Shown: piece after piece, positions 6,596 to 50,550 of the stretch
Layout: each line of letters starts with the position of its first letter
How positions within the stretch are numbered: position 1 is the stretch's first letter
NCBI GenBank assembly: GCA_046314385.1
Contig: JBKBWZ010000006.1
Location: forward strand, 6,173-70,172
Direction of reading: 5' to 3'
DNA from: Alphaproteobacteria bacterium
GTDB taxonomy: Bacteria; Pseudomonadota; Alphaproteobacteria; Micavibrionales; UBA2020
Length of the DNA: 64,000 bases
Program-made: the position numbers and the translations under genes
The notes under the pieces: model-generated
Seen by the model: only the letters and a program-made list of their open reading frames with translations
The model's database searches: none
Told to the model about the DNA's origin: nothing

Positions 6596-8077
6596 ATGGC
6601 AGACAAACGCCGATTGCAGGATCAATTCAAACGCGCCGCGCGAAAAACGCTGCTGGTATCGGCGATGGGTATTGCCGCGCTGGCCGGATGCAGCGGCACG
6701 CCTGTGCGTCAGGACACGCCGGGTGACGCCGACCTGCACAGACCCGTCGCTGCGGTCACCCCGTCCAAAAATGCCGAAGGCCGCAAACTGAGTGCCGAAA
6801 CCGAAGCGATTTTCCGCCGCAATATGCCCACCCCCGTGAACGACCGTCTGCCCGAGCAACAAAGGATCAACGCCTATCTGGATCAGCTCTGCTTCACGAC
6901 CGCAAGCGCGCCCAAAGAAGAACAGCGCGCCATGCGCCGCGCGCTGGAAGATCTGGCGAAATTGCCGCTGACCGGCCGGCCGCTGGTCGAAATGGCCGCG
7001 CGCGAAAATATCCAGTTCTGCAATATCCAGCATCTGCCTGCAGGCATGGGCGCACAATACGTGCCGCCGGTCGGTGCTGTACTGGTGCCCGGCAACATGC
7101 CGCCGGAGCCGATGATTTTGCGCATCGCACATGAAATTTTACATGCGGCGCAGGATAAAAACGGCTTACTGTCTTATCAGTACGATTGGGACATTCACAG
7201 CCGGCTGGCACGCAACCTGTCGATCGAAGCCGCCGCGCTGAGTTTCGAGCTGATGGTCGCTTTTGAAATGAAACAGCAGGGCGATGCCAAACTGTGGGAT
7301 CATATGCGCACCCGATATGCGCAGCAAAGCTCTTATGGCGATGCGCGGCTTTATACACTGACCGAAGAAACATGGGCGCAATCAAAAGCCGAAGGCAAAA
7401 CCGATGACGCCGCGCTGCGCGATGTCGGCAAGGCTTTGTGGACGCGTATGTTCGATAACCCCGGCTGGCTGGATTTTTATCTGAATTTCGAACTGGCGAC
7501 CTATATACGTGACGTCACCAGCGGCGCACTGGATGGCCAGCGCACCCTGCGCAGCGGCGGCTATAGCCAGAGCAAGACCGACAGCGCCGGAAAAATCGGC
7601 AGCGGCGAAAGTTTTACCCGCGGGGCGCGTGTGCCGCCGCTTGAAAAACTGCTGGCCGGCAACGACAAGATGCGTCAGGCCTATGCCGCGGTTGATCTGG
7701 AACGGCACCGCCGGTCACTGGGCGCGGATCATCCGCAAACGCAGGCCTTACGCCGCGCGGCAGTCGCTGACAATAACCCTTATTTGGCTGTTGATTTCGA
7801 AGCGGCGCTGAAGCTGATGCAGCAAAACGCTTTTCCGGATGCGGAGGGGAAAAAGAAATTCGCCTATCTGCATGAATATATGGATGCCGCGCTGAAACCC
7901 GCACGCGCCGCGGTTGCGGAGATCGTGCCCGGCGCCAAAGAAAAACCCGCCGAAGAGCAAAAACCCGAAGCCCTGCCGGAGCCCGAAGGCGATGCCGATA
8001 CCCCCCGCCCCGTGCCGCCGCGCGACACGCTGGCACAGACAAAACCCGCCGCGCAAAGATTGCCGCGCGCCGGATAA
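6596..8077 (+). CDS. lipoprotein with HExxH motif, putative zinc metalloprotease (paralog family 1 of 3)
   Basis: Lipobox LAGC at aa 28-31. HEILH at nt 7130-7144 in the context RIAHEILHAAQD. Downstream SIEAAALS. Upstream TGRPLVEMAARENIQFCN block is shared with the 19732 and 49336 proteins. Confidence 0.7.
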   Translation: MADKRRLQDQFKRAARKTLLVSAMGIAALAGCSGTPVRQDTPGDADLHRPVAAVTPSKNAEGRKLSAETEAIFRRNMPTPVNDRLPEQQRINAYLDQLCFTTASAPKEEQRAMRRALEDLAKLPLTGRPLVEMAARENIQFCNIQHLPAGMGAQYVPPVGAVLVPGNMPPEPMILRIAHEILHAAQDKNGLLSYQYDWDIHSRLARNLSIEAAALSFELMVAFEMKQQGDAKLWDHMRTRYAQQSSYGDARLYTLTEETWAQSKAEGKTDDAALRDVGKALWTRMFDNPGWLDFYLNFELATYIRDVTSGALDGQRTLRSGGYSQSKTDSAGKIGSGESFTRGARVPPLEKLLAGNDKMRQAYAAVDLERHRRSLGADHPQTQALRRAAVADNNPYLAVDFEAALKLMQQNAFPDAEGKKKFAYLHEYMDAALKPARAAVAEIVPGAKEKPAEEQKPEALPEPEGDADTPRPVPPRDTLAQTKPAAQRLPRAG

Positions 8078-8108
8078 TCAAAAAGAAATCAAAAGACGTT
8101 AGACGCGA

Positions 8109-8900
8109 TCAGGGGTGAAAGCCGCCGAATTTGCGCGCGGGCGCATCGCGTTTGATGTCCGGCGGTGCACCAAAACGCGCGACCACATCGGCAGCGGCAT
8201 CGGTGATGCTGCGCTCTGCGCTGGCACCTGCGGGCAGGGACTGCCCCGCCATTTCGCGCCCATGCCAGTTGAGCGCGGGGATGTGGATCGCTTCCATGCC
8301 GTTTTTACGCGCAGGGATAATATCCGATTTCAGGCTGTCGCCGATCATGACGGCGTCTTCGCCCTTCAGTCCGGCCTTGGCCAGCGCCGCTGCATAAACC
8401 TGCGGGTTTTTATCTTCGACAACAAAAACATCGCGGAACATGTGTTTGAACGGCAGCGCGGCGACACGGTTTTTCTGCACATCCAGATCACCGACGGTGA
8501 TGAGATAAAGATCAAGCCCCGCATCGGCCATGGCGCGCAGGGCGTCCTGTGCGCCCGGTTTGATTTTTGCTTCGGTGCGATAGACGTTATAGGCCATGTC
8601 GCGCGCATGCGCGATTTCACCGGCATCGGCATCGGGCAGGTATTCTTTGAGGACATCTTCATAGGCCTGCGGCAACAGTTCCTTGCCGTAGCCGTAGTTG
8701 TCAAAAATTTCGATCTGGCGGGCGCGCAGGCGTTCAATGACGTCTTCGGATTTTTCGTGCACGCCGGAGCCGAGTATAAAGTCCGCGAAACGGTTTTCGG
8801 CGTCGATGTAGATTTGCTGGGTTTCGATCAGCGTATTGTCCATGTCGAGAAAAACGGCTTTGACCACGCGCGGTGACTCCTGCTTTACGGGTTGGGGCAT
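8109..8900 (-). CDS. HAD-superfamily hydrolase
   Basis: HAD motif I FLDMDNTLIE and motif IV-like MIGDSLKSDI. The ORF-track start at 8945 is a TTG, so the first ATG at 8900 was chosen. Start is uncertain. Confidence 0.75.
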   Translation of the reverse strand: MPQPVKQESPRVVKAVFLDMDNTLIETQQIYIDAENRFADFILGSGVHEKSEDVIERLRARQIEIFDNYGYGKELLPQAYEDVLKEYLPDADAGEIAHARDMAYNVYRTEAKIKPGAQDALRAMADAGLDLYLITVGDLDVQKNRVAALPFKHMFRDVFVVEDKNPQVYAAALAKAGLKGEDAVMIGDSLKSDIIPARKNGMEAIHIPALNWHGREMAGQSLPAGASAERSITDAAADVVARFGAPPDIKRDAPARKFGGFHP

Positions 8901-9009
8901 CGATGTTGTATGCGCCGAGTCTATCGTTTTTTTCGCCGCAGGCAAGAGGCACTGACACTGTATAGATCGAGCGATTACAGATACTTAATTTTGCTGCATT
9001 GCCATATTG

Positions 9010-9038
9010 TTGCCATAAACGCGCAAAAGGTCTAGTCT
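9010..9038 (+). promoter_or_regulatory. sigma70-like promoter candidate (TTGCCA-17 nt-TAGTCT)
   Basis: TTGCCA at 9010-9015 and TAGTCT at 9033-9038, 55 nt upstream of the ankyrin gene start. Confidence 0.35.
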
Positions 9039-9093
9039 GGCAGGCAGAAAAGATTGGCACAGATCCGCCAAAACCCCAAAGCCGGATAAGACG

Positions 9094-48992: not shown

Positions 48993-49136
48993 ATGACGCA
49001 TAAACCACACTTCGACTCCAAAGCCGCCCGCCCCGCCGCAGACCCAGCGGCCTTGCAAGCTGGCGCTACCCAAATTCAGGAGAATGGAGTCAAGGTCGTG
49101 CACCATCACGGCCCCGGCTTTTCGCGTCCGCTTTAA
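48993..49136 (+). CDS. small hypothetical peptide (47 aa)
   Basis: My own translation is MTHKPHFDSKAARPAADPAALQAGATQIQENGVKVVHHHGPGFSRPL. GGAGA lies 7 nt upstream and an intrinsic terminator lies 30 nt downstream. Below the ORF-track cutoff. Confidence 0.35.
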   Translation: MTHKPHFDSKAARPAADPAALQAGATQIQENGVKVVHHHGPGFSRPL

Positions 49137-49168
49137 GTTTCGGTTTTTTGTTGTGAGCCCCTTCCTTT

Positions 49169-49201
49169 CATACCCGGCGCCTCCATGCCGGGTATGTTTT
49201 T
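49169..49201 (+). terminator. rho-independent terminator
   Basis: 10-bp stem CATACCCGGC / GCCGGGTATG with an 8-nt loop, followed by T5. Confidence 0.6.
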
Positions 49202-49335
49202 GTGCGCTCATGTATTCTGTATATTTGTGGATAATTCTTGGCGCAAAGCCCCGTTCTGTGCTTTGATATAAAAGCAAACGGCGGCCCAAAGGGTGTGACC
49301 AAGACAAATTCCTCAGGGTTTCAAGGAGTTCTTCC

Positions 49336-50550
49336 ATGTCTCGTTTGCCGGCTCGCCTCACGCCGTTCTTTTTTGATTCAAGCCAACCGCCACAAACCCC
49401 GCCCACGCCGCCCACACCACCCGTTATCAACCGCGGCGACTGGACAGAACCCACCCCCGAAGGCTGGGCACGGAAAACGGTTGCGGTCAACTTCATCGGA
49501 ACGGTCGTTCATGAACGGCCGGACCCTTTTGCGACCGAAGAACAAAAACAAAAACGTCAGGCCCAGCTGGACAAAACCGCAGATCGCAACGAGCGGGTTT
49601 TGAACGAGGCGCTGTTCATCCTCTCGCAAAGCCCGACCGGCCGCGATGTGCTGGAGCAAATGACCAAAGAAGGATACCGCGTTGTTTTTGACGACAAGCG
49701 CACGGGGGAGCGTGGCGCGGGCGGTCTGTGTGATCCGTCCGACAAAACCATTATTCTGCGCGGGCATGACAACCCCGCCTATCTGGCACTGCTGATCGGC
49801 CACGAAGCGGTGCATGCGGTGCAAAATACGCGGCACGATATTTTTCCATCCACGCGTCACAAACCCGAAGCAGGTATCAAACTGTCATTTGCCATCGAAG
49901 CCGATGCCTATGCGCAGCAATCGCAAATCGCGCTGGAGCTGGCTTATGGCGACCCGGATGGCCCCGCCGACCAGATCAAATTCCAGGAACCGCTCAAGCA
50001 GATGCGCCAGCGTTTCCCCGACATCATGCATGCGGCGGAGCGTGTTTTAAGCAAGGCCGACAACATCCGCAACGGCGCCAGCGTGGCGGCGGCGTTTGAA
50101 GCTTTCTATGACAGTTTTCATCTGCGCACATTCTATGAAGACGCGCATATCGAATGGGCGGATACCTATGCGCCGCATCTGAAAGGCCGCTTCCCGTGGG
50201 TACAAAAACATTTCGCCAAAGACGTCGACAGCCAATGGATCAAAGACCGCATCCAGCATCGCGGCAAGGCCTATCTCAACCAGCATGCGCCGCATTTGAC
50301 TTTTGACGATGCGCGCCACAGCGGGCTGACCGATGTGACCATCAAAAAAGTCGAAAAATTTTACGCAGACCACCTGCCCACAACGCCGCAGCCGAAACTG
50401 AAAAATTTCGGCGTGCATATGAAAGACGCGGTGCGCTGGGTGCTGGGGCTGGACGGTGTGACCCATGTCGTTTTCAAAAAGAACGACGACCCGACCAAGC
50501 CGCCGCTCAAGGCGCCGCCGCGCCGCGACCGCTGGGGCTTTTGGAAATAA
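49336..50550 (+). CDS. HExxH-motif protein, putative zinc metalloprotease (paralog family 3 of 3)
   Basis: AAGGAG Shine-Dalgarno. HEAVH at nt 49801-49815 in the context LLIGHEAVHAVQN. Downstream FAIEADAYAQ. Upstream PTGRDVLEQMTKEGYRVVFDD. Pro-rich N-terminus PPQTPPTPPTPP. Tail is KPPLKAPPRRDRWGFWK. Confidence 0.7.
   Translation: MSRLPARLTPFFFDSSQPPQTPPTPPTPPVINRGDWTEPTPEGWARKTVAVNFIGTVVHERPDPFATEEQKQKRQAQLDKTADRNERVLNEALFILSQSPTGRDVLEQMTKEGYRVVFDDKRTGERGAGGLCDPSDKTIILRGHDNPAYLALLIGHEAVHAVQNTRHDIFPSTRHKPEAGIKLSFAIEADAYAQQSQIALELAYGDPDGPADQIKFQEPLKQMRQRFPDIMHAAERVLSKADNIRNGASVAAAFEAFYDSFHLRTFYEDAHIEWADTYAPHLKGRFPWVQKHFAKDVDSQWIKDRIQHRGKAYLNQHAPHLTFDDARHSGLTDVTIKKVEKFYADHLPTTPQPKLKNFGVHMKDAVRWVLGLDGVTHVVFKKNDDPTKPPLKAPPRRDRWGFWK

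Follow-up and report, generated by a model that had tools for sequence, protein, structure and literature searches.

The stretch of DNA analysed here, 64,000 nucleotides (nt) of contig JBKBWZ010000006.1 from a member of the Micavibrionales and hereafter called the window, carries three dispersed genes whose products, termed paralogs A, B and C, belong to the DUF6782 family. These proteins are probably best read as anciently diverged, vertically inherited paralogs built on one small gluzincin-type zinc metallopeptidase module, which each of them would place in a different location. In particular, the targeting and the synteny of each paralog point to envelope proteases in the case of A and B and leave C as the sole credible effector candidate. 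The analysis was based on the open reading frames (ORFs) of the window with their translations, together with a six-frame ORF set for local hmmsearch.

Homology and conserved signature of the three paralogs

In a Pfam scan, all three proteins exceed the gathering score of PF20573 (DUF6782, "Putative metallopeptidase family"), which is 27 bits for the whole protein (Table 1). Pairwise BLASTP among A, B and C gives weak alignments that are in register (E-values of 8e-6, 8e-4 and 0.015), and the comparison of their orthogroup profiles aligns C with A at E = 4e-9, C with B at E = 5e-10 and A with B at E = 5e-6, over 142-185 columns. Because of these Pfam, BLASTP and profile-profile results, the similarity of the three proteins is attributed to true homology and not to a chance HExxH match, which the profile statistics rule out. 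Each paralog forms its own full-length orthogroup, conserved down to 36-37% identity (37% for A), and the overall identity among the paralogs is 15-19%; a recent duplication was considered and rejected on these figures. No fourth DUF6782 paralog is present in the window, where the hmmsearch of the six-frame ORF set returns exactly A, B and C. The named relatives of the three are all uncultured metagenome-assembled genomes labelled as Alphaproteobacteria, Micavibrio sp. or Rhodospirillaceae. The three paralogs appear to have diverged long ago and, judged from the neighbours that each keeps in relatives at 36-45% identity, to have been inherited vertically; A and B are core genes passed on in this way, and not obvious effectors.

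A profile built from the three orthogroups and searched against representatives at 50% identity retrieves 1696 clusters at E <=0.001 and 691 at E <=1e-10. The conservation of single residues was counted on an alignment of 113 diverse members drawn from the 1696 clusters, 112 of which lie above the curated threshold of PF20573. Every member (113/113) has the Gly in the TGR block, the two His and the Glu that define HExxH, and a Glu in the fourth conserved block, whereas the Gln of HExxHxxQ (103/113), a distal Tyr (109/113) and the Ala two positions past the fourth-block Glu (107/113) are near-invariant. A, B and C carry all of the family-invariant residues plus the near-invariant Gln and Tyr, and the spacing between the second His and the fourth-block Glu is 28 residues in A and C and 30 in B. 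DUF6782 can thus be given a putative catalytic signature made of TGR, HExxHxxQ, a Glu at +28-30 and a distal Tyr.

An earlier note on this DNA had listed the three ORFs, the starts of their HExxH codons at 7130, 20398 and 49801, and four conserved blocks; the ORFs, the codon starts and the strings quoted for the first block (around TGR) and the fourth were recovered as described. Its proposal that the three are paralogs of one putative zinc-protease family is borne out by the PF20573 matches and by the significant alignment of the cores in the profile-profile comparison. The suggestion that block 4 could supply the third zinc ligand also holds up, in that its invariant Glu lies 28-30 residues past the second His and on the next predicted helix, so that this residue is a good ligand candidate. 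To the four blocks a fifth conserved element can be added, namely the nearly invariant distal Tyr, which is residue 295 of A, 323 of B and 267 of C. The same note had called the family uncharacterised. This is correct, as the searched literature yielded no experimental study of these protease-like proteins, which form a large family of about 1700 clusters at 50% identity. The family is not new, however, since a Pfam entry and an NCBI name already exist; a protein 100% identical to A is named 'DUF6782 family putative metallopeptidase' by NCBI. A, B and C are therefore new members of a catalogued family, with no feature that sets them apart from PF20573, and what they add to it is a set of three deeply separated paralog lineages that differ in extra domains and targeting and that each keep a stable neighbourhood in a Micavibrio-like clade.

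Further searches were made with the same proteins. No NCBIfam model matches A, B or C. PADLOC gave no match for any of the three, so a defence-system role is not indicated, and tblastn of C against 72,556 plasmids gave no match, so DUF6782 is not plasmid-borne in that collection. The genome scan relied on a profile of the C orthogroup only; the mixed alignment of the three paralogs was too divergent. Among the more distant architectures are a 2563-amino-acid (aa) relative that combines an APH-type kinase and Sel1 repeats with a pair of DUF6782 domains (P0248, on a 271-kb contig of JGI metagenome 3300071358), and a 707-aa protein that contains the DUF6782 domain twice, with another DUF6782 gene after its own (L035:8001-11344).

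Predicted fold, targeting and proposed mode of action

The AlphaFold2 model of C (pLDDT 85.3, pTM 0.81) begins with a long helix and a second helix that carries TGR, followed by three short strands forming a three-strand sheet, the active-site helix 147-167, a long helix 177-204 bearing E188, and a C-terminal domain of helices with a disordered tail behind it. The same core is found in the model of B (pLDDT 71.7), with HExxH on helix 214-234 and the conserved Glu on helix 246-274. In both models HExxH thus lies on one helix and the Glu on the next, at +28 in C (and, by sequence, in A) and at +30 in B, a layout that fits a small gluzincin.

The weak external signals obtained for DUF6782 all point to zincins: IrrE, M78, M91, phrog_87, selecase and a thermolysin-like protease. 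The family profile aligns with the M78 protein IrrE of Deinococcus at residues 64-108, over the strand-turn-HExxH region (48 residues, E = 0.0023). Among the 113 relatives, weak Pfam contacts are made with PF06114 (M78) by 17, with PF14891 (M91) by 4, with SprT-like by 4 and with eCIS_core by 2, the best E-values being 5.4e-7 for PF06114 and 1.9e-7 for PF14891, whose threshold is passed by one relative. B matches the phage family phrog_87 "metallo-protease" at E = 7.7e-5. Foldseek superposes the model of B on selecase with probability 0.87 (rmsd, the root-mean-square deviation, of 3.2 Å over 74 columns at 22% identity), a weak match with E of at least 1.3, and the model of C gives a weak local superposition on the same protein as well as weak matches to a thermolysin-like protease and IrrE. 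The sequence of C searched against the PDB gives only borderline matches, to snake-venom metalloproteinases around HExxH. A, B and C themselves match neither PF06114 nor PF14891 (gathering score 25 bits) at E up to 1 in the Pfam scan. As A, B and C match neither of the two, DUF6782 appears to be a zincin family near M78 and M91 that belongs to neither, the M78 signals being at least as strong as those for M91.

Outside the core, the three paralogs differ in the manner that the earlier note had outlined. The N-terminus of A reads MADKRRLQDQFKRAARK-TLLVSAMGIAA-LAGC, and its lipobox, conforming to [LVI][ASTVI][GAS]C, is kept in 15 of 18 orthologs; A is thus predicted to be a lipoprotein with a classic signal. 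B consists of a confidently modelled four-helix N-terminal domain, one transmembrane (TM) helix formed by its single hydrophobic segment, the catalytic domain, a helical extension and a His-rich tail. As five basic residues precede the TM segment and acidic residues follow it, the catalytic domain is predicted to be periplasmic. The His-rich tail (HEPAHHHTHGHGHDCEVH, at the C-terminus, 21200-21342, + strand) is confined to the closest orthologs, more distant ones having none, and may be a recent metal-binding addition. C, in which a hydropathy scan finds no hydrophobic segment and no Sec signal, is arranged as a Pro-rich disordered N-terminus, the catalytic domain, the helical C-domain and a basic disordered tail, whose terminal motif is conserved in orthologs as ..RKRKRDFW (...APRKRKRDFW in distant ones) or ..WGFW.

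Basic tails are not restricted to C. Over the C-terminal 15 residues, the mean number of Pro, Arg and Lys is 5.6-7.3 in three groups of window proteins (ankyrin, hypothetical and DUF6782), against 3.1 in housekeeping and 2.2 in type IV secretion proteins (Mann-Whitney p = 3e-7, with groups defined post hoc). These net-basic tails may represent a shared export signal or may be a mere feature of disordered tails. Examples occur at 47648-48703 (-), 9094-9711 (+), 299-937 (-), 16915-17508 (+) and 26535-27182 (-), and include QIKPRAPKPPKPPQP, RFKPRTAGPR and TLRPRGPK.

From the conserved residues and the targeting features we infer how A, B and C might bind zinc, act as peptidases, be oriented in the cell and meet their substrates. 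One zinc ion would be held by three ligands, namely both HExxH histidines and, from the next helix, the invariant Glu at +28-30; the other Glu, that of HExxH, would activate the water molecule. The substrate would be bound as an added beta-strand by the strand with the Gly (GGLCD in C, GxY in most of the family) that immediately precedes the active-site helix, and the distal Tyr, which is near-invariant, would help together with the HExxHxxQ Gln to polarise or stabilise the intermediate. A, exported by the Sec pathway and processed by signal peptidase II as a lipoprotein, would act in the periplasm. B, anchored to the inner membrane by one helix and with its catalytic domain in the periplasm, would most likely take part in the processing or quality control of envelope proteins, in the setting of a protease-rich envelope locus (DegP-like Trypsin_2, LemA and M48). 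The signal-less C would act in the cytoplasm or, less likely, after translocation.

Table 1. Positions in the window of the three DUF6782 paralogs, their conserved residues and neighbouring features.
Feature	Position	Strand	Description
Paralog A	6596..8077	+	493 aa, predicted DUF6782 lipoprotein; PF20573 59.9 bits; orthogroup of 27 members
Predicted lipobox LAGC of A, residues 29-32, Cys32	6680..6691	+	regex and hydropathy scan; preceded by basic n-region and hydrophobic h-region
HEILH of A (H179, E180, H183)	7130..7144	+	invariant in A orthologs and in 113/113 family members
E211 of A, in SIEAAAL	7226..7228	+	proposed third zinc ligand, +28 from H183; invariant
LemA (17692-18267) and M48 peptidase (18306-19613)	17692..19613	+	directly upstream of B; Pfam
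Paralog B	19732..21342	+	536 aa, predicted bitopic membrane DUF6782 protein; PF20573 56.8 bits; orthogroup of 28 members
Predicted single TM segment of B, residues ~121-139	20092..20148	+	hydropathy and flanking charges; AlphaFold2 helix 114-132
HELRH of B (H223, E224, H227)	20398..20412	+	invariant
E257 of B, in YLEADAF	20500..20502	+	proposed third zinc ligand, +30 from H227; invariant
Ankyrin-repeat gene, divergent from C	47648..48703	-	Pfam Ank matches
Paralog C	49336..50550	+	404 aa, DUF6782 without export signal; PF20573 98.6 bits; 85 homologs
HEAVH of C (H156, E157, H160)	49801..49815	+	on predicted helix 147-167; invariant
E188 of C, in AIEADAY	49897..49899	+	proposed third zinc ligand, +28 from H160; on predicted helix 177-204; invariant (113/113)
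Y267 of C (Y295 in A, Y323 in B)	50134..50136	+	near-invariant distal Tyr; Tyr in 109/113
Basic tail of C	50452..50547	+	pLDDT <50 for residues 373-404; ends PPRRDRWGFWK
Two hypothetical genes downstream of C (326 and 336 aa)	50743..52730	+	tblastn synteny in L001-L027; no Pfam family
Type IVB (Dot/Icm-like) genes icmL-(M)-K-E-G-(C)-(D)-J-B	52813..63971	-	NCBIfam and Pfam

Gene neighbourhoods and alternative readings

In related loci at 38-43% identity, the gene of A follows a DUF3592(-)/HIT(+) pair. That of B follows, in loci at 36-45% identity, the row Trypsin_2, FHA, Ank, Ank, LemA and M48, and precedes a gene for a membrane protein of 254-268 aa; in particular, the order LemA-M48-B is kept in two loci (L005 and L006) whose B proteins are 36-45% identical to that of the window. 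The gene of the Trypsin_2 serine protease (502 aa) overlaps that of the FHA protein (319 aa) by 4 nt (12408-14872, + strand), and this pair is kept upstream of the Ank-Ank-LemA-M48-B row in the same two loci. Directly 3' of B (21406-22170, + strand) lies a gene for a 254-aa multi-pass membrane protein with HEIGH in a hydrophobic stretch (LLFHEIGHMIGWWLFG); this protein, which has no Pfam match, resembles an intramembrane metalloprotease in its sequence features, and a gene for 256-268 aa occupies the same position in L005 and L006. A sigma-70-like TTGCCC-17-TATAAT element, a consensus match only, is found at 19663-19691 (+), 40 nt upstream of the start of B.

C is the only one of the three that lies close to the type IVB secretion system (T4BSS), with the gene in the position of icmB 2.3 kb away, as the earlier note had it (2263 nt between the end of C and the 3' end of the gene at 52813-55947), whereas A and B, at 45 and 31 kb respectively, are unlinked to it. 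The assignment of the cluster rests on NCBIfam matches to IcmL/DotI, IcmE/DotG, IcmG/DotF and IcmJ/DotN and on a Pfam match to DotH/IcmK of 230 bits; the 1044-aa gene at 52813-55947, which has no Pfam or PDB match, is called icmB by its position, its size and a weak TraC match alone. The window ends inside or just past this cluster. In most relatives the region corresponding to about 46200-52800 reads as T4BSS genes, the ankyrin gene on the opposite strand, C, the two genes at 50743 and 51720 and the gene at 46212, all but the ankyrin gene pointing in the same direction. An inversion distinguishes the window and its three closest relatives (L009-L011), in which the T4BSS lies downstream of C, while elsewhere it lies upstream; in the inverted form, icmB is downstream of, and convergent with, the gene at 51720, and the gene at 46212 is on the far side of the ankyrin gene. 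The genes at 50743-51723 and 51720-52730 (+) share a 4-nt overlap and accompany C in most relatives; they are apparent paralogs and cross-match the same tblastn regions in L020 and L024. A strong terminator-like hairpin, again a consensus match only, is found at 49169-49196 (+) within the 632 nt that separate C from the ankyrin gene. Elsewhere in the window, positions 28600-30700 contain only short ORFs with atypical codon-position GC content and give no tRNA or Rfam match.

As for the organism, the cultured M. aeruginosavorus ARL-13 has been reported to be without type III and type IV secretion (PMC3189940), and a literature search on type IV secretion in Micavibrionales found nothing useful. 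The presence of a Dot/Icm-type cluster and of many ankyrin genes in an uncultured Micavibrio-like clade is the more unusual part of the finding.

Several observations weigh against the reading of A, B and C as separately placed zinc peptidases. Foldseek against the PDB gives no significant match to a solved structure, the best E-values being 0.43 for C and 0.19 for B. HExxH is also found in non-proteolytic enzymes, and a ChlB-type HExxH oxygenase (8s5f_D, probability 0.35) is among the weak matches of C. A literature search for 'DUF6782' returned no paper, and no experiment on any member of the family was found. A distant relative (L003) has a LemA-M48-Acs row without B, so the LemA-M48-B linkage is not universal. 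Moreover, A, B and C all have basic, Pro-rich C-terminal tails resembling those of the neighbouring ankyrin proteins, which could mean a common export route that envelope proteases would not be expected to share.

Some of these observations would suit a domain that is not a peptidase at all, such as an HExxH alpha-ketoglutarate-dependent oxygenase like ChlB or an M78-like ligand-sensing module, and this is very unlikely. Besides ChlB, Foldseek lists SjiH for C and, for B, a local superposition on the M. tuberculosis transcriptional regulator 6cyj/6cz6 (probability 0.5-0.6), and no protease structure is matched significantly; 6cyj carries an M78-like domain. However, these matches have E-values above 0.7 and TM-scores of at most 0.3, the signals at the sequence level all lead to peptidase families (M78, M91 and SprT-like), and the Pfam scan detects no helix-turn-helix (HTH) or other DNA-binding domain in A, B and C. 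An invariant HExxH that is combined with a Glu at +28-30 and with an edge strand leading into the active-site helix is in itself the gluzincin signature. A regulatory role of the ImmA/IrrE kind, in which C would cleave one partner encoded nearby and the divergent ankyrin protein would be its substrate or inhibitor, appears even a little less probable. It would agree with M78 being the family most often touched by the relatives and aligned through the IrrE profile, and with the divergent Ank(-)/C(+) pair, which is kept in every relative that covers the upstream region (18 of 18 related loci). In the predator Bdellovibrio, an ankyrin protein is reported to shield the cell from its own peptidoglycan endopeptidases (PMC4686830). 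Nevertheless, A, B and C all fail PF06114, the pairing of C with the ankyrin gene could be inherited synteny, and no cognate HTH repressor gene adjoins any of the three, whose neighbours are HIT/HAD (A), M48 and a TM protein (B), and ankyrin and hypothetical genes (C).

Of greater weight, although still unlikely, is the possibility that C is a substrate of the adjacent Dot/Icm-like system, namely an NleD-like protease that is injected to cleave a host or prey protein, with DUF6782 serving as a general effector domain and the basic tail as the signal. C has no Sec signal, and its block adjoins type IVB genes in some 17 related loci whose identity goes down to 37%, C lying within about 2-5 kb of icmB and always beside the ankyrin gene. 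The resemblance to NleD/HopH1 proposed by the earlier note receives limited support. NleD of E. coli O157:H7 Sakai has STETGRVLL, HELLH 67 residues further on, and LEEAR with its Glu at +28, so that the block order (TGR, HExxH, [IL]E at +28) is common to both; hhalign of the 113-member alignment with a three-sequence M91 alignment gives E = 5.8e-4 over 87 columns, with TGR and HExxH in register. The probability of that alignment is only 29%, however, it falls to 4.7% (E = 0.0085) when the single NleD sequence is used, and the M91 contact seen in 4 of the 113 relatives does not extend to A, B and C. The large relative that unites a kinase and Sel1 repeats with two copies of DUF6782 has an effector-like architecture, and the Pro-, Arg- and Lys-rich tails found on the window's ankyrin proteins, hypothetical proteins and DUF6782 paralogs speak in the same direction. 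The signals known for Dot/Icm substrates contain many acidic and small polar residues, whereas the tail of C is basic, and similar tails occur on A and B in spite of their Sec or TM targeting. Because the gene order is so stable across the clade, the adjacency of C to the T4BSS, which may simply be inherited, is weak evidence of a functional link; moreover, one related locus that is complete on both flanks (L024) shows no T4BSS gene in the vicinity of C. A wider version of this proposal, in which the type IVB system exports both ankyrin proteins and DUF6782 proteases by their basic tails and injects an NleD-like C into a eukaryotic host or a bacterial prey, is improbable. If true, it would give type IVB systems, in DUF6782, a counterpart to the M91 effector proteases of type III systems, and the export of C would add a new protease class to the type IVB effector repertoires.

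Relation to M78, M91 and minigluzincins

The reading of DUF6782 as a small gluzincin places the family near M78, M91 and the minigluzincins, and the three naturally separated versions of the module found in the window are ready targets for biochemistry. The M78 family, for which ImmA/IrrE and Deinococcus IrrE (PDB 3DTE) served as reference, shares with DUF6782 a strand-turn-strand, the HExxH helix and, about 27-28 residues further on, a Glu that is the third ligand in M78 and the proposed one in DUF6782. The TGR helix, the Gln of HExxHxxQ and the large helical C-domain with its conserved Tyr are, in contrast, features of DUF6782; A, B and C are also without the adjacent repressor gene of the ImmR/DdrO type of pairing, and two of the paralogs, A and B, are predicted to be periplasmic.

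The likeness to M91 consists of S-T-x-TGR-x-LL, followed after about 55-67 residues by HExxH and then by [IL]-E-[AE] at +28. NleD is, however, a 232-aa type III effector with HExxHxxHN instead of the HExxHAxQ of the DUF6782 paralogs, and it is without a long C-terminal helical domain, whereas A and B would be Sec-targeted envelope proteins. Finally, the minigluzincin selecase of Methanocaldococcus jannaschii (PDB 4QHF) has a comparably compact zincin core, which can be superposed locally on the model of B. It is a stand-alone domain of 110 residues, in contrast to the DUF6782 proteins of 400-540 aa, which have extra domains and are distinguished from it by their invariant Glu at +28-30.

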